The notes under the pieces: model-generated
What the model was told of the DNA's origin: nothing
Database searches by the model: none
Seen by the model: the letters and a program-made list of their open reading frames with translations, nothing else
Part shown: in pieces, positions 14,120 to 51,208 of the stretch
Position numbering within the stretch: the stretch's first letter is position 1
Layout: every line of letters starts with the position of its first letter
Origin: Zootoca vivipara
Taxonomy: Eukaryota
Length of the DNA: 64,000 nt
Reading direction: 5' to 3'
Assembly (NCBI RefSeq): GCF_963506605.1
Contig: NC_083294.1
Span: 35,960,001-36,024,000 of the forward strand
Translations under genes and position numbers: made by a program

Positions 14120-15125
14120 CAGAGGAAACTACCTTATACTGAGTCAGAACTTTGGTCCATCCAGCTCAGTTTTGTGTTGTTGTTGTTGTTTAGTCGTTCA
14201 GTTGTGCCCAACTCTTCGTGACCCCATGGACCGTAGCACGCCAGGCACTCCTGTCTTCCACTGCCTCCCGCAGTTTGGTCAAACTCATGTTCATAGCTTC
14301 GAGAACACTGTCCAACCATCTCATCCTCTGTCTTCCCCTTCTCCTAGTGCCCTCAATCTTTCCCAACATCAGGGTCTTTTCCAGGGAGTCTTCTCTTCTC
14401 ATGAGGTGGCCAAAGTATTGGAGCCTCAGCTTCACGATCTGTCCTTCCAGTGAGCACTCAGGGCTGATTTCCTTAAGAATGGATAGGTTTGATCTTCTTG
14501 CAGTCCATGGGACTCTCAAGAGTCTCCTTCAGCACCATAGTTCAGAAGCATCAATTCTTTGGCGATCAGCCTTCATTATGGTCCAGCTCTCACTTCCATG
14601 CATCACTACTGGGAAAACCATAGCTTTAACTATACGGACCTTTGTCGGCAAGGTGATGTCTCTGCTTTTTAAGATGCTGTCTAGGTTTGTCATTGCTTTT
14701 CTCCCAAGAAGCAGACGTCTTTTAATTTTGTGACTGCTGTCACCATCTGCAATGATCAAGGAGCCCAAGAAAGTAAAATCTCTCACTGCCTTCATGGATC
14801 AATGCCTTGTCGTGGCGAAGGGGCTTGAATAACTCAGAGAAGCTATGAGCTATGCCATGCAGGGCCACCCAAGATGGACAGGTCATAGTGGAGAGTTTTG
14901 ACTAAACGTGATCCACCTGGAGAAGGAGCTGGCAAGCCACTCCAGTATCCCTGCCAAGAAAACTCCATGGACAAAGACAACAGTTTTGTGTATACTGACT
15001 GATAGTGCCTTTTCAAGATTTCAGAAAGAGAAATCTCCAAACCATTCCTGGAGATGCCAGGGATTGAAGCTAGGGTCTTCTGAATGGAACACTATGTCTG
15101 CTAGATTAGCTGAACTATGGCTCCC
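14120..15125 (-). mobile_element. Squam2-like tRNA-derived SINE split by a Bov-B insertion (pieces ~14120-14177 and 14992-15125)
   Basis: The 3' part CCTTATACTGAGTCAG...GGTCCATCCAGCTCAGT lies left of Bov-B. The body and head CTGGAGATGCCAGGGATTGAAGC...GCTGAACTATGGCTCCCC lie to the right. The pieces are collinear across the TSD. Confidence 0.75.
14178..14980 (-). mobile_element. Bov-B (RTE) LINE, internally deleted, with an inverted 5' segment
   Basis: 14795->14178 encodes the Bov-B RT C-terminus (ORFs 14529..14795 and 14190..14519: RRLLLGRKAMTNLDSILKSRDITLPTKV; LRLQYFGHLMRREDSLEKTLMLGKIEG) and ends in a (CAA)n tail. 14796-14980 is Bov-B 5'-region sequence on the opposite strand. 11-bp TSD CAGTTTTGTGT (14167-14177, 14981-14991). 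Confidence 0.92.
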
Positions 15126-17502: not shown

Positions 17503-17977
17503 AAAATGAAGCTGCATTTTAATTTTAATTTTAATGTTTATTTAATTCTGTTCTTACGTTGTACAGTGGAACCTCGGTTTATGAACACCTCGGTTTACGA
17601 ATTTTCGGTTTACGAACGCCGCAGACCGATCTGGAACGGATTAATTCACTTTCCATTACTTTCAATGGGAAAGTTCACTTCAGTTTATGAACACTTCAGT
17701 TTATGAACAGACTTCCGGAACCAATTACACCCATGCTTCGGGTTAAGTACGCTTCAGGTTGAGTACTCCGCGGACCCGTCTGGAACGGATTAATCTACTT
17801 TCCATTACTTTCAATGGGAAAGTTCGCTTCAGTTTATGAACACTTCAGTTTATGAACAGACTTCCGGAACCAATTGTGTTCATAAACCGAGGTACCACTG
17901 TAATTCAATCAGCTGTTTTATATCCAGTGTTAGCCGCCCTAAGCCCGGCCTTGTCTGGGGAGGGCAGGGTATAAATA

Positions 17978-18009
<32 letters not shown>
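17503..18009 (+). mobile_element. L2-type LINE 3' UTR/tail inserted in the Tigger fossil, itself interrupted by a MITE
   Basis: AT-rich UTR followed by GTTAGCCGCCCTAAGCCCGG...GGGAGGGCAGGGTATAAATA(TTA)n. Flanked by TTGAAATT at 17495-17502 and 18010-18017. Confidence 0.7.
17564..17900. mobile_element. Tc1/mariner (Tigger-like) MITE
   Basis: 25-bp TIR CAGTGG(A/T)ACCTCGGTTTATGAACAC, matching 24/25. TA TSD at 17562-17563 and 17901-17902. Internal ~105-bp direct duplication. Confidence 0.92.
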
Positions 18010-18011
<2 letters not shown>

Positions 18012-18718
18012 GAAATTGTGAGTGCATACCTTCCAAAGGCTGCACTAGCATGCATTCAGAATTTCAGGCTTGATTGAATCCACTGCCTGCTTGACATAAT
18101 TGATGCAGTTGGCAATGTTGAAGGACTTCAAGAATGCCATGCGGTCAAGATTCAGATCAGCATCCATAGCATCGATCAGTGAGGCAAAGATGAGCTTGGT
18201 GTAATGAGCCTTGAAGCAGCAAATCACCCTGGATTTGCTGGATGAGTAAGGTGGTATGAAGTAGGAGGGGAAAAAAGGCAACCATGACATCATTGTGTGC
18301 AACTTGCAGTCCCTGCGGATAACATTGTCCACCACTAGCAGCAGTTTGAACTCCAGCCCCTTCTTCTGCAGGTAAGTGCATCACCACCAAAATGAAGCAC
18401 TTGTGGAACCAGTCCAGAAAGGTTGCCGCAGTCACCCATGTCCTCTTGTTGGATTGCCAAAAGACAAGCAGCAGGTTCTTGTTTTTTGCCTTTGAGGGGG
18501 TTTTCAGAGCTGTATGCCTGGTTTGATCAAATGCCCAGTCACATTACCACAGAGCTGCACAGTCACCCAATCCTTTGCAGCTTTAAATCCAGGAGTGCTT
18601 TAGTCTTTTTCTGGCTTGTTTCATAGTCTGGAGCTCTTCCGAATACTAAAGGAGCCACTGGAGAGATGCTTAGGAGTGATCATGTCAACTGCCTGTTTGA
18701 TTTCACTGTTCCATACTG

Positions 18719-19047
18719 CATACCCTCCAACATTTCTCCGATGAAAAGAGGGATGTCCCACTCCATAATGATGAATTTACTATTTGTACCTCAGACACCT
18801 GACTGGGTTGCCCCAGTCACTCTGGACAGATTCCAGCATGTCATAAGAAAACATTAAACATTAAAACAAAAACCTTCCCTATACAGGATTGCATTTAGAC
18901 AGCTCAGGGGTCAGATAACTCCATACCTTCCAACACTTCTCCAATGAAAATAAGGAAAAGCGGGACATTCCAGGATCAAATGAGAAACCAGGACGGCTTC
19001 TCCAAATCAGGGACGTCCCTGGAAAATAGGAACATTTGGAGGGTCTG
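18719..19047. mobile_element. Composite hAT-like MITE with a duplicated left end and an enclosed L2 tail
   Basis: CATACCCTCCAACATTTCTCCGATGAAAA at 18719 is repeated imperfectly at 18922. The right end TTTGGAGGGTCTG is the inverted terminus. An antisense L2 tail lies between the two left ends. TSD not convincing. Confidence 0.65.
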
Positions 19048-20049
19048 CATATTATATCTTAAAATAAAATAAAATAAGCCCACTCCCCTTTCTCCGCTGT
19101 CAGAGTTTTGAAAGGGGCCGTGGCAAAAGAGGGCATGTCTTAATTGTGGGGTTATAGCCAGCCTAAAATGCTTTGATCAGCTCTCTCTAAATGAAAATTC
19201 TGAATCTTCATTTTTGCCTCTATCTGGGGAAGGGGAGGAATGAGGAAGGCAGCCCAGCCCTCTATGCCATTCAGACTCTCTGCATATCAAATGCATTTTC
19301 TCCCATATAAAGATAAAATGAAATGTTGGTTTATGAAGCTGTGAATGTCTGCCCATTTCTGGCACTTAAAATGCTTCATGCACGCACATATAATCAGGCA
19401 AGCACTGAAATTATAAACAGATTGCAAGCCTCCCCTATGCTTATGTGTTATCATAGATATATTTTAAAAATCCTACTTTCTCTTTAGTTTGGACTTTTTT
19501 CTTTCTTTCTTTTGCTACATTCCCTTACTTAATAAAATTAAGTGTCCTAAAAGTGACAATAATAAGATGATAAATTTATGGCATTCTTCCACACCCTCCT
19601 CAATAATACTCAGCACTGATTCTTGCTTGTTTGGTGCATTTTTGTTTCGACACTTTCAAGACATAATAATTATGACAACGAACATGGCTGAACTAGAATT
19701 AAATCCATTACCCTCCAAAAATTCATTTTCCCCTTGAAGCCCGTGCTTGAATCTCCCTCCCCAGTCTGAAACTGCATTTTCTCACCTTCATATTTGGTTC
19801 TCTTCATTAGAACCTCTAGCTGAACCTCTTTTGGTAGGGAGTTTCACAGGGCAGGTCCTGCCATACTAAAGATAGTCCCTGGTATAAAGGTCAACTGAAA
19901 CTGCCATGGTCCATGAACTATTTCAGCTGGTGTACCAGCCAGAGGTGGTAGAAAGCACTCCTGGACCAAATGCAACTCCATCCCATTCCCACTTCCTTCA
20001 AAAGTGAGAGGAATGAGTGTTATGCAGTGCCTGTACCTGAATAATGTAT

Positions 20050-20150
20050 AATAAAAAAAATTCCTTCAGTAGCACCTTAAAGACCAACTAAGTTTATATT
20101 TTGGTATGAGCTTTCGTGTGCATGCACACTTCTTCAGATACACAGAATAA
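20050..20150. mobile_element. Penelope-like element (PLE) pseudo-LTR fragment
   Basis: GTAGCACCTTAAAGACCAACTAAG...GGTATGAGCTTTCGTGTGCATGCACACTTCTTCAGATAC is typical of reptile PLE termini. 12-bp flanking duplication TGAATAATGTAT (20038-20049, 20151-20162). Confidence 0.75.
20104..20141 (-). ncRNA. Minimal type I hammerhead ribozyme motif (PLE-associated)
   Basis: The minus strand reads GUAU-CUGAAGA-A-GUGUGCAUGCACAC-GAAA-GC-UC-AUAC. It has stem I GUAU/AUAC, a CUGANGA core, a palindromic stem II, GAAA, a palindromic AGCU stem III and a UC cleavage site. Confidence 0.8.
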
Positions 20151-20984
20151 TGAATAATGTATGTTTCTGTAGCCTCTCCTGTTCCTAACTTCATGGAGAG
20201 ACTATTTCTGCCCCAAGTTGTACCCAAGTGATATGGATAGAGAGCCCATAACGCAAGGAACTCAGCAAATACTACGGCAATCCCTCTCTCTGTGTGTTCA
20301 TCCTATAATCAAGTGAAGAGGGCACTAATAGCTCGTCCTTTAATGACTACCAGATCCAACTAATCAACATTCCCTAGTTTTCTTCTTTTAATAGAAAAAG
20401 TTGGACCTTTAAAATTTTATAAGGCCATCATTCTTTATAGTGCCGTTGCAGTTTGTGCTAATTACCCCGAGCTTGATATTATACTATTTGCATCCTGAAT
20501 ATAAGTCCAAACACAGTTTGAGACCCTACTAATGACTTTTTGCAGATTAACAATTGATAGCTAAGTAATTTATTAGAGGGTTCATACGGTGTATCTTTCT
20601 AGTATGCTATGAAATATGTAAATAGGGTGAAAATGATGAGATAAGTGACCATTTTAGCACTCAAAGATAAATGCCAATGCAAGCCACGCACAGAACACCA
20701 CCAGAAGCACAAAGCCACCAAATGAAAGTCAACAATTATCATCTTCAGAATCGTCGTTTGGCAGGAACCTTTGGGAACAAAACAGCCCATGATTATGAAT
20801 ACTGTGTGCGTACAGGGCAACCAACATATTGCAATGGGAAATGATGTTGATTAAATCCATTTCAGTACTTTCTCTCCTTTTGGGGAGGATATATAAAATA
20901 ATGTCCCAGGTGGTGCCACTTGCCTTATCCAAATCTGACCACCCATAACGCTGGTAATATCTAGACAAGTCTTCCTGAGGTGGT

Positions 20985-21085
20985 GACCTACCGAGCTAGA
21001 TGTTTTGGACTACAACTTCCATCAGTCCTGACCATTGGCCATGCTGGTTAGGGCTGGTGGGAGCTGGAGTGCAACAGCAACTGCA
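20985..21085. mobile_element. Hairpin hAT-like MITE (URR1/MER5-like lizard family)
   Basis: GATGTTTTGGACTACAACTTCCATCA...TGGTGGGAGCTGGAGTGCAACAGCA has self-complementary arms. Confidence 0.6.
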
Positions 21086-21299
21086 GTAATCAGTGCATGC
21101 ACTAGGGCCAGGACGGTGTCAGCCAAATGAGGAAACAGGGACTAGTGACACCTGTTATTTCCTACTGGTAGTTATTCCCACAAGGCAAGGGTTACTTGTA
21201 GGTTCATGCTCATTGCTGATCCATGTTTACATTAATAAAGCTGTGATCATTATGCTCTAAGCTGTGGTCTGGGTTTTGTTCCCTTTGCAGGGCAACGTC

Positions 21300-21422
21300 T
21301 GCACTGACTGGTGGCAGCTCTCCAGTGTTTCAGACAGGGAGTCCTGCCACCCTACTTGGGATTGAACCTGAAACCTTTTTCATGCACGGCCGATGCACTA
21401 CCTCTGAGTTGTGACCCTTCCT
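21300..21422 (-). mobile_element. Squam2-like tRNA-derived SINE, degraded
   Basis: CACTGACTGGTGGCAGCTCTCCAG...GGGATTGAACCTG...ATGCACTACCTCTGAG carries reverse A and B boxes. Confidence 0.65.
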
Positions 21423-21917
21423 CTGAGACATCGCACTGTTTGTTTGCTTATTGATTTTCCTACCACAGACTAAACCGAACCTGAAAGGGGGGAAAAGAGT
21501 GAGGGAAATGTAAAGGTTGGTAAACGTTATGGCATGCTCTCTTTTATTAAACTTCCACTAGATTGAATTCATGTTTTGACAGTGAAGTGACATGGGTGAG
21601 ATCTCTGTGATGTTCTATGTGGCTTGTGGCTGTAAATAAATTCCTTTGGCAGGTTTATATCTTCATTAAATATTCATGTGAGAAGCTCCCGCCTGCTATT
21701 CCCTGCCTGCTTTTGCATGACATTGATGTAGGTTGGAATTTTTTGCCAGTTAGGGTACATTGTACTGATTTCAAGAATCCTGTTATGTTAAAAGTTAAAG
21801 CCACTGGTGGGTGTGCATGTGGTGATGGAGATGGAGATGAGCATGTTTGAGTTTAGCAACTTGTACACATCCCTAAATGAATGATTAAAAATGCTGTTGA
21901 TGCAGAAGCTCTCACTG

Positions 21918-22001
21918 AGAACCAGTGTGGTGTAGTGGTTAGAACAGTGGACTCATAATCTGGTGAACTGGGTTCAATTCCCCGCTCCTCCACATGCAGC
22001 T
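21918..22001 (+). mobile_element. Squam3-like CORE SINE, tRNA-like head only
   Basis: GAGAACCAGTGTGGTGTAGTGGTTAGA...GGGTTCAATTCCCCGCTCCTCCACATGCAGCT matches the head of the full copy at 47720-47977. Confidence 0.75.
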
Positions 22002-24401
22002 AATAATAATCCCCACATCATCTCTAGCTATGCCATGAACCTCAGTCATTGAGCAATGCCTACAGGTGTGCAAGTGAACCTGTCCTTGGAAGACAGAAAT
22101 TTTCTTATTCATACAATGTTCTTATTCTTGCCACATGTGCTCTGGCTGGTAATATATTATCCCTATGGTGTCATTTCCCACAGGGTTTTCTCTATAGTAA
22201 GCACCTATAAGGTGTTTCAACTGAACATCCTTCACGGTGATGGCATTATATATGCTCAATAGGGCAACATCCACAGGGCTTTATCCCACAGCAGGGAACA
22301 TGGGGAATGGTAGATTCTTGATCACACAAGGGATGGTCAGATAACCTTCCCAGAATGGAAGGGGGATGCTACCATACACACCATACTTACTACCACTTCC
22401 CACTATCATTGTGCTTGAAAGAGGAGCTACCCATCTGTTTTATGTCACATTTGAAAGGGAAGCCTATAAACATGCAGGTGTATGGGCATTGTCTCTGCAC
22501 CTAACTGAGAAATCTGAGCCAGTGTTTCCTTCTCTCCCTTCTATACATTGAGTAGCATGTACAGTCTGAGTTATTTAATCTCCTCTATGGAAGAAAAGAA
22601 AAAAAGGACCCCAACTTCATTGCAAATGCCAGAAGAGCATTGCACAGGGCAAGTCCTGCCTACACATTTCTGCTTCCTCTCCTACACATATTCAGGCAAC
22701 ATCAATGTCTCTGAACAGGGCCAAAGTAACACCCCATCAGCTTGTTCAGCTTGGAGCAACTCGGCTGAGTAAGCCACTGGGAATTGCAGTAAGGTGTAAC
22801 AAGATCTTCAGCGGAAGACGAATTGATTAAAACTACTACTGCAGTCCATTACCTTCCTATTGAGTCTTAGTGCAAAGCACTGATTAAATGAGACAGTGTG
22901 AATTTAACTCCAGTCACAGATAAGCAGAGGGTTTTTTCCCCTCCTCCCTTCATAAAATTGCAAGGTTTTTGTTGTTGTTTTTCACATAGGGACTGATTAA
23001 AATAATTGACCAATTAGATCATTTGTTTACTTCTGCAGCTGCATGAGCAAACACCTGACTGAGAGATGATTGGCACAGATCCAGGTTCAAACACTTGATG
23101 AGGCACAGAATTCCCTGGCTGCCCCTTGCACCAGTTGCTACCGCTGAGCATGACCTACCTCACAAGGTTGCTGTGAAGGTAACATGATAGCCCATGCAAA
23201 CCCTTTGATAGTAACATGCAAAGGGGACATACAGATAAAGAAGCAGTGCAGAGTATTGTAAAGTGACCCTTCATTTTTGTTTTCTTACATGCCCAAGGCA
23301 TATTAATCAAGTCTCTTTATTCTCAGAAGTGTGAATTCAGGGCAGCAGTCTCTGCATTATACAGAACACCCTCCCAGGGGCAGTGAGGGAACGTGCCTGC
23401 ATTTAGGTATGGATTTTGGCATGCTATGAACACTTAAAAAAAACTAAAAATCAACAAAAACCCCACTATGTTTCAGGAAGCGTTTCCAGCATTTTAATTT
23501 TATCTGGTCATTTTTAATACTGTTTATTACATATGCTATTCTGTATCTTGTTTTGCTAGGATTGCTTAGAGATCTATTATAATAAATAACCATTTTTAAT
23601 AAAACAAATAAATACTTCTTTGTCTATCCTGGTTCACACAAGATATAAGTTGGGGAGGGGGAATGGCTTCCTCAAATTCTCCATACTTTTGGGTGGGGGA
23701 GCAAAACTGGGAGCAGGTGGGGTGAATGAGACAAATTATCTGAAAGCCCCGCTCAGCCAAGTCAATACAGAATGAAACAATATTGTCAGTTCAAAGTGGA
23801 TAGCAACATGCTATGAAGAGAGAAATTGAAGTAAGGAGCAGTGCACATTCCACCTCTCTATACCCATTGCTGGAATTCACAAGTGGGGAGACAACTGTGG
23901 TGCTCATTTTCTGTTTGTAGGCTTTCATGTGGTGTCTTGTTGACTAGTGAACAGGATGTGGATTTTTGCTGCTTCTGCTATCTCATGTTATATTTCATTG
24001 CACTGCAATTTGAACTCTATGCAATTACAACTGCTACAACAGCCAGAAAATAGTTCTGGGGACCACTGCCCTGCTTTATTAAATCTCAGGTGACAAATGA
24101 GAACTTGTTTATTCCAACCAAGTTTTAAGTGAATAATATTTTAAATCCTGTTTTAGTTTTGTTGCTGGTTTTCCTGTAGATTGATTATTTTATTGTATAT
24201 CTCTTTTTTAAACCTCTTTCTTAGTCTTTCATTGTTGTGTATATTTAATAGTTGGCATTTAACTAATTCAAGTTCAGAGCAGATTCACTGACATTAATAA
24301 ACCTAAGTTGTGTCCATTGACTTGAATATCACCCAGGATTTTAATTCCTGTTGTTAATCATGCTGGAAGAGTTTTTAGTGGGGAAAATAGTTCTCAGTGA
24401 C

Positions 24402-24522
24402 TAATAATAATAATAATAATAATATATTATTTATACCCCGCCCATCTGGCTGGGTTTCCCCAGCCACTCTGGGTGGCTTCCAACTAAATATTAAAAACAA
24501 TACAGCATTAAACATTAAAAAC
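24402..24522 (-). mobile_element. L2 LINE 3' tail
   Basis: (TAA)n followed by TTTATACCCCGCCCATCTGGCTGGGTTTCCCCAGCCACTCTGGG, the reverse complement of the L2 tail. Confidence 0.82.
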
Positions 24523-24527
24523 ATAGA

Positions 24528-24660
24528 ATAGGGAAACATGTCCCTTCATATGTTGTTAGCCTACAAATCACAACTTCCCTAACCACTGGTCATGCTGGCT
24601 GCAGTTTGATTGGTGATGGAGTTCAATAGCATCTGGAGGACCATATGTTTCACACTCCTG
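24528..24660. mobile_element. Hairpin hAT-like MITE, degraded
   Basis: Same family as 20985-21085. Confidence 0.5.
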
Positions 24661-27600
24661 TGTGGCAAAGTGTGCGACCCTGAAACAATCACTCACAGGT
24701 GTATAACCTCCTCTTTAGAGACACTGCATGCAGACTTGCCCTCTATCCTCCTGTACAACTGAATTCACATTTCACTTGCTTTAGAATGACATCAGAACCA
24801 AAAAAAAGTTTTTTGCTTCATGAAACCCACCTTCTTCTTTTTAACTGTCTTTTGAGGGGTTTTTTTCTTCATAAACTGGGGAAATGTTCTATTTCTGAGG
24901 ACAGAGAAAACAGTCAAAGTATATATGACGTCCCAGTGGTTTCTTCATTTCAAGAGACTCATTTCTGTGATATCATCATAAATAAACCTGAGTACCTTTA
25001 TGAGGCAGAAAATTGGAAGGCAGATACTCAAAAAGGTTAAATACAATACAGTGTGGCCATCCGTTAAATACTTTAGAATATAATGAGCAAAACCCATTCA
25101 TTTATTACCAATTGGTCTGATGATGCCGGTGAATCAGCAAAGGCTGTTTTCAAGCTCATTGGGAATTAGCTATGAAATTAAGAACAGAGCCACTCATAAA
25201 AGCACTACAGGAGAGGAATTTCAAGCAGAAGATGGTTTGCATTAATATTTTCTACAGTATCTCTGTAGAAAGGAGTCAAATGGAAGTTGATATGGCAAAA
25301 AGTAGACAAATGATGGAACAGGATCCAGATCTCGCCCTTTGATCTTATGATCTACATATCCTCACGGGACAAAAGACCTCTAGATGATGGAGCTGGAGGT
25401 TGTAATGATTAATGGAAGAAGCGAGTCAGAATATGATAGTGGAGAGGTAAGGGGCACAAGGCTATTGAGAGGTCTGACCCTCCACAAAACAAACATTGTG
25501 AATCTTAACTAAAATTGCCTCAAAAAATTCTTACAGGTGTTTCAACTGAGTGCAGTTGATGGAGAAGGGAGAAGCTTTTTTCCTTTTTAGCTCAAAGGCT
25601 ACATTCCCTACTGGGCAGACTTTCAGGGGCTACTTGCCAGTGTTGGTCAGAGGCAAAAGTGGGCAGATAAACTTTTGAAGATTTTACCTTTGTGAAGAGT
25701 GGTAGCTTCTGTACATCCCTCCATTCAGACAAGCAGAAATAATTAGTAGAATTCAAGAATTCAATCCATCCAGGCAAAAATACTCAAAGGGTGAGGGCTG
25801 TTCCCAAGAGAGAGTCCCAGGGGTCTGGATGGCCACATTTGATTCTCAGGTCAGAGGCTCCCCATTCCTGACTTAGTGGAACACTCCAAATTCTCCCCAT
25901 AGTTTTGCTTTTAGCAAAATATGTTCTTAATTTAGTTTAATTCTCCCCTCTGAGATACGCTTTTAATGACTTGAAATCCATACAGGCTATTTCATCCTGT
26001 CCGGATGCTCCAAATTTGGGACCAAATGCAGAAAAGGGCCGCTGACTTCTCCTCCACTGGTGTGCTTCTGGAATCTTGATCTGGTTGGGCAATGTATGTT
26101 GACTAGATTGAACATTGGTTTATGCCAGCAGAGCTCTTACTGAGTTCTTAGTAGGGCTGTGCTCAGTTTCCCCTCTAATTCAGGGTCCAGGGTGGCACTT
26201 TAGAGTAGCCCCAATCCAACTTTGAGGGCCTTGAAAAGTCATGTGGTGTGCATGGGGGGGGGGAGAGAAGGGAGCATGCATCTTCTCCTCTGCATCCATG
26301 TGTTTAATCAGAGTTTCAAACCCTAATTGAACTTGCAGTGGACCTTCTTCCCCCTCTCCTAGCTAGCAGATTGTTAAAGCCACAGATCTTTCTCTGTGGA
26401 CCCAATCCAACCTGGGGTGATCTGAGAGTGCCTCAACTTGATGCAGCCAAATTTTGAGTAATCTTGAATCATCCCAATATGGTTCAGGATCTAAGATTTT
26501 GCACAGCCGTAGTTCTTACTACTTCTTTATAAATGTCCCTTATACTCCAAAAAAAATTAAGCAGTGACTGTGACTTCTGCATAGAAATAGATGGATTACA
26601 TCTGGTGACCTATTCCTTGCAATCTAGTGTCACCAGCTTTTATGGCTGAATCTGTGGAACTGTAAATTTAGTGTTCGTCTTCCTCTCCTTCCTACCCCTT
26701 TTAGTAACTATGCCACTATTACTGCCTTCCATATGTTCTTGAAATGTGGAGGTGAAGAAAATATCTAATGGACCCATTACTCACACCCTCTCACTATATT
26801 CAGGATTGTGAAATGCATAGAGCAGCTCTTTGCTTAAGGTATGGTATTATATGATAAACATTCTTAGTCATGTATTTTCAGGACTAATATCCAGAGAGAA
26901 AATGGCAAAGGTAATAACAGGCCACTAAAAGTCCGTGCAGAAGGGTCTAGCACAGAGAGTGAAAAATGAAGTTTCAGGCAGACAGAAGGTACAGCATAAG
27001 GTCATCATAAAGGATCAAAAAGAAAAGTAGAAGAAGTTGTGTAATATCCTCTCAAAATGAATATGACAAAGGTTGTAGGTTACCTTAAAGGGAGGGGAAA
27101 AGTCCCAAGCCCATTATGAGTTTTACATCCCATATGAGAAACAGCAACAGGGGAGGAATGTAAAAGAAACAAAAAGTAAGTAGAAAATATGAACTTAATA
27201 GTTCTGCTCCATGACAAGTCTTTAAAATACTGAAACAGAGTGTTGTGGTAGTGGGTGAATTATGGAGCCCTACTCAGGAGGAGGACCAAGGAGGCAAAGT
27301 GTTTATTAGAGCAGTGTCCCTCTGACAAAGGGATAGGAACCTCCAGATGTTGCTGGACTCCAAATATCCAAAGGAGCTCAACATTCCCCATCCCTGTTTT
27401 AATGTTCCATCAGGGGCAGCTATGGAACCCTGCACAACTTCTAGTTCTTTCTATTCTTTGCAAGTCTCCTCTCCACTCATTTTACATTTTAACTTGCATA
27501 TTAACCAAACATTGCAAGAAAATGACTGATGTGATTGCACATAATTGCATTAAGGTTATCTTTGTGTCGTGATTTTTTCTAAGGCATACATAGAATTTTG

Positions 27601-29095
27601 AGTTTGTGGTAAAACAGTATAAAAAAGAATTTTGGTAAAAATTAAAAAATTAAGGCTGTTGCCATGCTGCAGTTTGCATGACTCACACAAAAGAAACCAA
27701 GATCACGTATAAATGTACTCAACCACAAAACAGACGTGACCAGCTGATAATTATCTCAAAATTTTATAATTATTATATATAAACTAAACCAAAACTAAGA
27801 CGTCAATATTTCTAAATTCAATTCAAGTCCTTTGCTCCCATAGAATACTGTAGGAAGTTCAAAGGTATGCAAGAGTTCATTTCAACGATAATGCTTGTAG
27901 TATTGCTAGACTAGTGGTATACAGTGATTTGCTATGCATGCTGGAAAGAGGTTAAGAAATGGTGGTAGTCCTTTAGGGGTGGTACTCGGTCCACATGGAC
28001 TCTCCATTATTTGAATATCCTCCATGTTGGATCCCCATAATGGCTTCATTTCATTAACAGAAGAATGAAACCCACTTAAATGTCCAAGCCTTCAGAGACC
28101 ATGTTTAGTTTAATTTTAATTCTTTCCCAGCCTTCTCCTTTTGGTTTTTAATTGTGCTTCTTAAATATTTCCTCTACATTTCATTGATTTTATTTTATTT
28201 GACGCAAACCCCTTTTGAGATCATTGCTGACAAACACCCACCCACATACCCCTGCATACAAGATCACCAGATAATAAATAAATAAAAGCCTTTGGAGACA
28301 TAGGGATCTGTGCTGTTTCTTCTGTTTCTGAAAAGGAAGGAACCTGTCATTTGAAGAACACCACAGGTCTAAAGCTTTCGCTGACCAGCATTCGGCAATG
28401 GGGAAGAAAACAACTTAGCAACTGACTCTGATGGCGTCATGTCATGTTTAATCAGCGAAGACTGAGCTAGTCACCTTGAGATTCTGAAAGCCTTGTTCGA
28501 TACCATTTAAAAGATTGATTTTCTGTAACTATGAATCCTCTCAAGTAGTCATTAGACAGGAAGGAAGTTACCTGGGGCTTGTTTTTTTAAAAAAAAATAC
28601 AGGGGGGGGGAATGAAATATAGAAGTCTAGCCTAGAGGAGGCAAGCTGAAAACTGAGGAGCTGTTTGTCAGACCAGAAACAAAGGTATACCTTGGAGGGC
28701 TGGCAGGGGTGATGTTATTCAAGTTGTTCCTTCGTAACAGTGAGAACTCCTCCTTGACCTTCCCTCTCACTGACAACAGAGCTGGCTAGATAAATAAGTG
28801 GAGAAGGAAAATAGCAAGACAGTTTCTGAAGGAAATAAAGGAGAGAGATAACACTTAGATCTCTCTTTCTACAGAACCAGCATAAGTCATGGATGTTTAC
28901 TGCCAACAGATGTTTGGGTGTAAAGGCAATTACTTAAGAACACTGCTGAGAAAACCATGTGTGCTCTTCATTCTGTAGACAGTTATTTTCTGCCAAACAG
29001 GAGAATATCTCTTGCAGTCCTAAAAACGTCCAGCCAGAATATGTGTTGTTAATTGAAGTGTTAACTCTTGCTTTGTTGGTATTTTGTTACAAGCA

Positions 29096-39485: not shown

Positions 39486-39898
39486 GAGAGCTAGACCATA
39501 AAGAAGGCTGATCGCCGAAGAATTGATGCTTTTGAATTATGGTGCTGGAGGAGACTCTTGAGAGTCCCATGGACTGCAAGAAGATCAAACCTATCCATTC
39601 TTAAGGAAATCAGCCCTGAGAGCTCCCTGGAAGGACAGATCGTGAAGCTGAGGCTCCAATACTTTGGCCACCTCATGAGAAGAGAAGAATCCTTGGAAAA
39701 GACCCTGATGTTGGGAAAGATTGAGGGCACTAGGAGAAGGGGACAACAGAGGACAAGATGGTTGGACAGTGTTCTCGAAGCTACGAACATGAGTTTGACC
39801 AAACTGCGGGAGGCAGTGGAAGACAGGAGTGCCTGGCGTGCTATGGTCCATGGGGTCACGAAGAGTCGGACACGACTAAACGACTAAACAACAACAAC
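39486..39898 (+). mobile_element. Bov-B (RTE) LINE, 5'-truncated
   Basis: ORF 39558..39887 is the Bov-B RT C-terminus, followed by a (CAA)n tail. 11-bp TSD AATGTTTACAA (39475-39485, 39899-39909). Confidence 0.95.
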
Positions 39899-49578: not shown

Positions 49579-51092
49579 ACCCTACCCCCCAACACATTAG
49601 TCAAAAATGGAATTATACTTCTCCTTTTGCAAGGAAGGATTCATTAGGTAAAATGAAGTCAGTATCCCAGGCAGCTGATTTTTTTGTTACCGTGAAAGCA
49701 AATTGTTGCTTACTGAATTTATCATTGCTGCATTTTATTGTCAGAGAGAAGCATTTCCATCGGGTGCCAGAATAATTTGTCCAGCCTTGGGTATTATGAA
49801 CCTTGGCTTTTGTGGAAGGGAGTGACAATTCCTAGGAGCATGCGCCAACCACAAGCTTTGGTTTAAACCCCAGTTTGGTGTTTTGGAAAATAGTCAAAAA
49901 TAGTCACAATGGAAATCCCCTGACACTCACAATGGGAATCCCAAGCTCCACCCTCTCACCACCCAAAATCCCTCTGAGGCATCCCACTTTGGTTCAGGAG
50001 TCTTTCAGATCTGTTGAACAGCCTTATCATTTGGGGATTTATCACAGGCAACAAAAGATTTTAGACTGGTCCTAATCCCACCCACCCCCCACCCTGGCTG
50101 CCCTTTCAAATACTTGTCCCATCATGACCAGCAAGACGTGCATCACGTGGGGCATCAGTTTATCAATTTTATTTCTCACTTCAGGAAAGTTAATGAGGAT
50201 TTATGGACCTAGAGCAAAGTTACCGCTCCAAATTTTGAAACTGAGCAGCATTACTGATTTAAAGAGTTGTATTCCTTCTCCCTAGCAGCTCATAATCACT
50301 TTGCATTTTTTTGTTTGTTTTGTTTGTTTTTGTAGTTAGAATATCACGCATCTTCAAAATCCCTGTGTTCTTTCAGGTCATGCCACTGCATCATTTTTTA
50401 CTATTATTGAGGAAAGACTTCTTATGCATGTCATAACTTGAAATATGTTGAAGGAGAGAGTTCTAAATCATTTCCAGTTTCCTCTTTTCCTAATTGGTGT
50501 TTTCTCTCCTTTAGAGCCAGCGTCTCACATGAATCATTTGACATGTTGAGACCTTCACCCCAAATCTATACCATTTATATATCTGCCACCTACCTAGCCC
50601 TCTTTGCTAAGTGTAATTCAAAAGAACTTTGAAATCACTCTGTTTGGGATAGGTTAGTTTTTTGGGGGAAAACTGAAAATGCAGAGCATAAAGTAAGATT
50701 TTAATTTCCCTGTTATTCATGGCCTTTTAAAAAGGAAATGTTATTACAGTGATTTGGAATGTTTCCTTTTGTTTACCCTTCTATATAACTGGGACAACAC
50801 ACATGTTCATTTTCTGTTCTCCATGGGTAAGTAAACTAAGATTTACGCAGAGCAGATCCAGTGGAATTAACTGACCTAAGTCTTCTATCACCTTAAATTC
50901 TAACCAATGTTCAGTGTGGTGAAGTATATATGCCTACTCAGAAATAAGGCTACTCTAAGCCTGGCTGTGTGGAACTCATCCATTGTATTGTTATGGAGCT
51001 AAAACTATCCATGATGCAAGCAATCTGCAAATATCATGGAAATAGTAACTGTGGGGCAAGAGGCAAATTCACTTTACCTTTAACATTAAGAC

Positions 51093-51156
51093 ACTACTAG
51101 AAGGATTTTTTTATTATTTTGTTTCGACTACAGCAGACCAACACGGCTACCTACCT
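51093..51156. mobile_element. Penelope-like terminal fragment, opposite orientation to 20050-20150
   Basis: CTACTAGAAGGATTTTTTTATTAT resembles the reverse complement of 20048-20073 and continues TTTGTTTCGACTACAGCAGACCAACACGGCTACC. Confidence 0.55.
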
Positions 51157-51159
51157 TTA

Positions 51160-51208
51160 AGGGAAAGGAAGTGGCTCAGTGGTAGAGCAATTCCTTTGCA
51201 TGCAGAAG
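51160..51208 (+). mobile_element. Squam2-like SINE head fragment
   Basis: GTGGCTCAGTGGTAGAGCAATTCCTTTGCATGCAGAAG, truncated before the B-box. Confidence 0.65.

Follow-up and report, generated by a model that had tools for sequence, protein, structure and literature searches.

The hammerhead-bearing insert at positions 20050-20150 of the Zootoca vivipara window (the window being the whole stretch of 64,000 nucleotides that was analysed) is, judged from its sequence, almost certainly a piece of the pLTR of an autonomous Penelope-like element (PLE). On the minus strand, 94 of its 95 aligned bases are identical to the pLTR of an intact element, L213, and it is therefore read as a single-arm PLE stub, 101 bp long and of the 'short' (tail-less) class. 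This supports the PLE origin that an earlier sequence-only reading had proposed for the locus, and replaces the separate non-autonomous unit that the same reading had seen in it. We further consider it probable, at about 0.68 (0.65-0.7 for the transcription-start run-off reading), that the stub is a run-off copy of uncleaved PLE RNA, made from an internal start site of reverse transcription (RT) to the point where transcription begins.

The insert lies between two identical 12-bp target-site duplications (TSDs; 20038-20049 on the left, 20151-20162 on the right), which match perfectly, allow no extension and leave 101 bp between them. Twelve base pairs is also the modal TSD length of the family (37 of 100 arms), in keeping with the earlier claim that the repeats are a true TSD, and the coordinates and letters previously given for repeats and hammerhead all agreed on re-check, as did the statement that the 101 bp hold no coding sequence. 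Read on the minus strand, as are all the parts described here, the insert opens with a junction filler of 7 nt (20144-20150; sequence and alignment), six bases of which repeat part of the target duplication and four of which can alternatively be aligned to the parent with a one-base gap. The 5' end of the insert proper is ambiguous, lying 6 nt before C3 of the hammerhead if the alignment is ungapped and 11 nt before it if it is gapped.

The hammerhead itself, a minimal type I motif of 38 nt at 20104-20141 that was assigned from sequence, fold and conservation, has the architecture described in PMC4209133 (what is said here of PMC4209133, PMC8557442, PMC3846280, PMC2377424, PMC6765202, PMC7229834 and the preprint bioRxiv 10.64898/2026.07.22.740005 applies to the accessible portions of those texts). 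It consists of a 4-bp stem I, a full core, a bulged A after A9 and a 5-bp stem II, with no stem III in the monomer. The 5' strand of stem I (20141-20138) is followed by the core from C3 to A9 (20137-20131), one extra A (20130), the 14-nt stem-loop II, a perfect palindrome by sequence and fold (20116-20129), the core from G12 to A15.1 (20115-20112), a two-base spacer (20111-20110), U16.1 (20109), C17 (20108) and the 3' strand of stem I (20107-20104). By the standard hammerhead numbering, the predicted scissile bond would lie 3' of C17, between 20108 and 20107. All the core positions of the motif are present at the locus (C3 U4 G5 A6 N7 G8 A9, G12 A13 A14, A15.1-U16.1, H17), together with the helix features of PLE minimal hammerheads, that is, a short helix I, a G10.1-C11.1 pair closing helix II, an unpaired base after A9 and a palindromic, vestigial helix III. 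Sequence and fold thus uphold the minimal type I hammerhead with palindromic stem III and bulged A that had been described, and folding corrects its stem II, from 6 bp with a 2-nt loop to 5 bp with a 4-nt loop. The rest of the insert (20050-20103) is, by alignment to the parent, the 3' part of the pLTR, and it stops at the first, T-rich one of the 3' ends, roughly 38 nt before the tail would end and roughly 45 nt before the parent's ATG.

The parent monomer measures 3,002 bp, and in L213 the hammerhead is found in both pLTRs, 3,002 bp apart, where it lies roughly 163 nt past the stop codon and 133 nt ahead of the ATG. Intact frames of 925 codons (901 aa from the first ATG) are present in L209, L210, L212, L213 and L092; the first four belong to the insert's own subfamily and have frames that are 99.4-99.9% identical, with L092 at 96%. 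Pfam recognised RVT_1 (E 6.5e-12) and GIY-YIG (E 6.2e-5) in the L092 frame, and the parent has the layout of an EN+ PLE, a single ORF with RT plus a GIY-YIG domain at the C terminus. A CX4CxxC linker stands at residue 785 and GIY-YIG at residue 824 of the stop-to-stop frame, and a CX2-5CxxC linker before GIY-YIG marks the Neptune and Nematis clades (PMC8557442). The nearest named relatives of the parent protein are unlabelled turtle proteins, at 61-73% identity. On these residues the parent would be placed in Neptune or Nematis, and Neptune is the likelier label because Neptune and Poseidon are the sole PLE clades reported in vertebrates in the accessible text of bioRxiv 10.64898/2026.07.22.740005.

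A genome-wide count of copies had been suggested as a check on the insert, and it finds its boundaries common to copies in large numbers. Across the 1.44 Gb searched (the window lies on contig C19), the 29-mer just 3' of the hammerhead, which counts the family, has 18,098 exact matches and the subfamily 31-mer has 5,102; both reversed controls gave 0. The stubs share their subfamily markers with the intact elements, and longer copies of the insert's subfamily form a continuum up to full length. Neither the TATA-like box that lies upstream nor any sequence downstream of the first 3' end is contained in the insert; of the two hallmarks of a SINE-like element, a promoter and a diagnostic sequence of its own, neither was found in it, the TATA-like box lying outside and the sequence being that of the parent subfamily.

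The case for a run-off origin rests on where such copies end. The main sample comprised the first 100 subfamily places listed on contig C1, which are 100 arms of 67 insertions and not random draws, arms within one insertion not being independent; the top BLAST matches that carry the insert's 5' letters were kept out of all counts, as they had been picked by that likeness. On the 3' side, 47 arms end at the T-rich short site, where the insert also ends, 53 end about 38 nt further on and none ends between, and these two sites are the limits of the known PLE 'tail'. TSDs of at least 11 bp were found at 83 of the 100 arms, against 6 of 487 controls, and lengths of 12-15 bp account for 77 of the arms (microhomology being included here, as in the 37 at exactly 12 bp). 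On the 5' side, where ends are measured in nucleotides before C3, 33 arms end at +4 to +7, where 1.08 would be expected from the rate of upstream truncation; a P value for this pile-up is overstated, as the arms are not independent. The remaining arms are distributed with 4 at +3, 1 at +8, none at +9 to +12, 7 at 0 to +2 and 33 further upstream, the last 22 ending in or just 3' of the hammerhead (21 at -19 to -3, the majority of these where an inversion joins, with 1 more at -32 or further). Counted by insertion, 31 of the 67 have an arm at +3 to +8, and a whole-family sample that partly overlaps the first gives 21 of 100 at these positions, with 3 rows unplaced. Most of the arms of the main sample that pass +12 (27 of 33) also pass +21. 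Genome-wide, a perfect hammerhead extends to +4 in 2,806 arms and 1,103 arms reach +12, a drop that includes mutation and spacer variants.

Nearly half of the insertions (32 of 67) have two or more arms. Multi-arm insertions (L131-L208) are mostly arranged head to head, usually with one tailed and one tail-less arm inside a single TSD, and the points where their arms join are often within the stem II palindrome or make use of the 4-nt stem I complement. The family as a whole shows the layout of EN+ PLEs, with pLTRs from partial tandems, an inverted truncated arm and a tail of 30-40 nt at one end.

We propose that a TATA promoter in the pLTR would start transcription about 7 nt before C3, and that the hammerhead would in this way come to lie at the extreme 5' end of the mRNA. 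Reverse transcription would start at either of two internal sites, about 95 or 134 nt from the start of the RNA, as it does in vitro for the Poseidon element of Anolis. A start on the 5' pLTR of the transcript would give a run-off cDNA of 95 or 134 nt, and long copies would come only from the downstream pLTR; the template would nearly always be uncleaved, and the endonuclease would cut the two strands about 12 bp apart. Since run-off RNA combined with an internal RT start would produce a short unit with two fixed edges, no separate element needs to be invoked. The stub would leave the TATA box behind and would lack the sequence 3' of the RT start, because of which it would be dead on arrival, with the hammerhead as a passenger; its likely inability to move again is carried over from what holds for a Poseidon-clade element.

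The promoter part of this proposal is suggested by the longer copies. Of 46 long arms, 42 have a TATA-like octamer 25-33 nt ahead of the +7 base (28-30 nt in 40 of the 46), which is the usual distance from a TATA box to the start of transcription, and relative to the 5' pile-up the spacing is 28-31 nt. The distance is fixed although the spacer varies between subfamilies; 23 of the 46 have the spacer of a subfamily in which the third base of the TATA-like box is C, and 4 of the 46 have no match. Transcription of PLEs is known to start within the pLTR (PMC2377424; PMC8557442), and a putative TATA box and Inr have been noted in a rotifer pLTR (PMC3846280). A TATA box in the pLTR is not universal, because Penelope of D. 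virilis has a TATA-less internal promoter and a start 46 bp before its intron (PMC2377424). In three RNA runs of one study, of each of which about 6% was used, read starts and read ends piled up neither at +7 nor at the cleavage site; libraries of this kind do not map caps. A literature search, with most subscription journals outside its coverage, turned up no work in which the 5' ends of truncated PLE copies are mapped to the point where transcription starts. In L092 (1385-1395 and 4240-4250, minus strand), the 11 nt before stem I were seen by eye to be complementary to codons near the start of the ORF, codons that lie about 160 nt downstream in a tandem transcript; the observation applies to L092's subfamily.

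It is conceivable, though in our view rather unlikely, that the insert is a PLE stub whose 5' edge has a different cause, either because RT falls off after unwinding stem I or because the RNA itself ends at a splice acceptor. The pile-up does abut stem I, but a block by RNA structure should halt RT on the 3' side of the stems, at their 3' foot (about -34 or -22), and not beyond them, which makes this variant less likely. As to splicing, the insert's subfamily has a pyrimidine tract with an AG that finish exactly 5 nt ahead of C3, and in D. virilis the intron extends up to the 5' edge of helix I (PMC4209133); a spliced template should, however, leave a common upstream exon, and instead the sequences 5' of the pile-up vary by copy or are those of an inverted arm, while 23 of the 46 long arms have AC for AG at the splice position.

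If the template were cleaved by its own ribozyme, 5' ends should gather at the scissile bond, and none of 100 arms ends there in either of two samples; cleavage was therefore rejected as the main setter of 5' ends. Some positions inside the hammerhead hold 3-4 of the 100 arms. Genome-wide, 57 matches appear to start at the scissile bond, which represent 56 distinct arms, 51 of them truncated and 5 point mutants (L216-L310); the neighbouring positions hold 11 truncated among 19 (one base 5') and 12 among 24 (one base 3'). The excess is thus four- to five-fold locally and about 1% of the subfamily. In 26 of the 51 arms there are 2-4 nt of microhomology with the partner arm, which leaves their true ends uncertain; AT-rich filler is present in several others, and 3 of the 51 are one segmental duplication, namely a single insertion with the same flanks that occurs three times within 150 kb (L236-L238, G000:C5:81.10-81.24 Mb). 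We read the templates as mostly uncleaved, which agrees with PMC11167929, and a small minority of them may have been cleaved; the 1% excess is weak, and microhomology may explain it. A bolder and doubtful interpretation would treat the copies as a fossil map of PLE RNA, in which about half of the insertions are run-off copies with an end at the cap site, 7 nt ahead of the hammerhead, the ribozyme is so positioned as to decap the mRNA of its own element and not to cut monomers out of tandems, and the 51 arms are copies of cleaved RNA that record firing in vivo in about 1% of templates.

That the motif is real could not be argued from the window alone. Matches to the loose core pattern are at chance level, with 7 in the window where 6.14 would be expected, the stability of the fold is nothing unusual (z -0.08 to -1.33, not significant), and the Rfam scan that had been suggested as a check returned no hammerhead family at the gathering threshold and none at E<=10. 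The motif is taken as real because of homology, namely the 94 of 95 bases shared with the pLTR of an intact PLE and the 38-nt hammerhead itself, which is identical to that of the window in 141 of 193 arms (drawn from 186 sequences by a selection blind to hammerhead changes). In these 193 arms the only recurrent non-CpG change of the core affects N7, a free position (175 A, 12 C, 5 T, 1 G), and the stems are invariant across subfamilies, hence there are no covarying pairs. The 20 nt upstream of the hammerhead differ strongly between subfamilies. An older subfamily (75-87% identity) is represented by three arms, which retain the same motif with signs of decay. This pattern fits conservation of the hammerhead in master elements; with 141 of 193 arms identical, the intact core at 20104-20141 would reflect youth and not selection at the site. 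Elsewhere in the window there is no other hammerhead-bearing PLE copy. A second stub, of the older subfamily, is found at 51086-51160 (plus strand; 83% identity over 75 nt), with a tail and without a hammerhead, and about 18 kb before the window the older subfamily has a further copy, decayed and with two arms, whose hammerhead is degenerate (L215, 2336-2518).

RNA data bear on the possibility that the 100-bp unit propagates as an element in its own right. In the three runs of the one study (about 6% of each), depth is 500-3,700 over the unit of 95-134 nt and at most about 10 over the 5' half of the ORF. Heavy depth over exactly the unit, boundaries common to about a third of arms and TSDs of its own are what a SINE- or retrozyme-like unit would show, one that is processed as a dimer by the hammerhead and mobilised in trans, and non-LTR retrozymes have been proposed as PLE derivatives, also in reptiles (bioRxiv 10.64898/2026.07.22.740005). 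The same genome also holds a tandem derivative with a period of 598 bp in which every unit has one hammerhead (L094:826-3242, at G000:C1:2776500-2781000), an array of four hammerhead units, each an internally deleted PLE with the start of the ORF joined to its end, which fits the definition of a non-LTR retrozyme and offers a natural construct for a dimer-cleavage test. We nevertheless hold such a self-mobile unit to be improbable. The insert is a monomer whose ends do not lie at the cleavage site, as those of a processed monomer would, the junction filler differs from copy to copy, and the stubs carry the markers of intact elements of their subfamily; 64-87% of the unit's reads run on into unlike sequence, because of which we regard the stubs as transcribed as passengers in host transcripts. 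The one shared deletion junction that was tested, common to L026 and L027, is present at only 2 genome places, and a mini-element built on it was rejected as the source of the insert. In L161 and L162, which lie on different contigs (G000:C8:86487114 and C9:46566860), a common junction runs from the start of the ORF back to just before the hammerhead and is present at only 2 genome places; L161 forms a 182-bp tandem.

A host ribozyme that cleaves a transcript of the locus when paired with another copy in trans is very improbable. In its favour stand the intact core and the passive transcription, somewhere in the genome, of thousands of identical copies, but the intact core speaks of youth, the one RNA run used has no depth on the unique flanks, no host exon was found, and the dimer is not the favoured fold. 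That run gave no depth on the unique bins of window 18100-29000, and a Pfam search of all 259 frames of 62 aa or longer, which would miss short exons, returned no host exon, the hits being DDE_1 fragments and three matches below the cut-off. Nearest-neighbour folding, a model outside which tertiary energy lies, gives the monomer stems I and II only, and assigns -11.1 kcal/mol to the double-hammerhead dimer, -13.6 to two monomers and -30.6 to a 14-bp stem II duplex. The trans-dependent RNA processing that had been suggested for the locus is thus without support. Dimer cleavage by minimal hammerheads is summarised in PMC6765202; they are described as cleaving poorly even as dimers (PMC4209133), and the protein of the element was needed for cleavage of a minimal hammerhead (PMC11167929). 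Contigs of two other studies span the left and right junctions of the insert. In run X5 the contig across the right junction (window 20120-20498) has a depth of 26, against 47-56 in its neighbours, and the insertion or its haplotype may be heterozygous; an empty allele was not among the joints listed.

The DDE_1 fragments belong to a DNA-transposon relic at window 17571-18543, where they occupy 18048-18543 (E 5e-5) beside 16-bp tandem repeats at 17571-17858. Young LINE pieces, putatively of the RTE/BovB type, lie at 14180-14983 and 39486-39897, with 95-98% identity to an RT-coding stretch in L015.

A young and dead transposon stub gives this single locus little weight. The family is more useful, as it is very young (the near-identical ORFs and thousands of copies) and records both internal RT starts, the 12-bp stagger of the cut and probably the 5' end of the RNA. 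Little is understood of how PLEs replicate, and to our knowledge a single element has been reconstituted in vitro. The hammerhead is conserved, yet the RNAs that serve as templates would nearly always carry it uncleaved, and the question of its role in PLEs can be reduced to the mapping of caps and of 5'-OH ends. There is also a warning for annotation, in that PLE stubs resemble ribozyme SINEs but need not be such.

Among known systems, the closest in RNA structure are the minimal hammerheads of metazoan PLEs (PMC4209133), with which the motif shares the 4-bp helix I, the unpaired base between A9 and G10.1, the G10.1-C11.1 pair, the palindromic 15.2-16.2 and the lack of a helix III in the monomer. 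The same work ascribes thousands of single dispersed motifs to truncated PLEs, and it reports such hammerheads in turtle and snakes. Helix II differs, being fully palindromic here with its 5 bp and 4-nt loop, whereas that of Schistosoma has 7-8 bp; the motif is also nearly invariant within the present genome, and PMC4209133, in its accessible portion, maps no copy ends.

Also close is PAc, the Poseidon element of Anolis carolinensis (PMC11167929), whose pLTR likewise carries a hammerhead, which has a tail of 30-40 nt between two 3' ends and uncleaved RNA as its main template, and for which the two tail limits were shown in vitro to be internal RT start sites. PAc belongs to the Penelope/Poseidon clade, its ORF starts in stem II and RT starts 111-118 nt into the ORF; in the present family there are 104 nt from the cleavage site to the ATG on its 3' side, the ATG comes after both 3' ends, and the protein has the CX4CxxC linker. 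With the non-LTR retrozymes (PMC7229834; bioRxiv 10.64898/2026.07.22.740005) the insert has in common that it is non-coding, carries a type I hammerhead and is akin to PLE pLTRs. Those are tandem arrays with a hammerhead per unit and circular RNAs, and the insert, which is one monomer of 101 bp and does not end at cleavage sites, was rejected as a member of that class for want of tandem units.

In its coding and insertion properties the family resembles the EN+ PLEs of the Neptune and Nematis clades (PMC8557442; PMC3846280), which likewise have RT, a Zn-finger-like linker and GIY-YIG, partial tandems, an inverted 5'-truncated arm, a tail at one end, short TSDs and a putative TATA box and Inr in the pLTR. 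It differs in that its TSDs centre on 12 bp, against 8-10 bp in the rotifer examples, and in that about half of its insertions are shorter than 150 bp per arm and share a common 5' edge.
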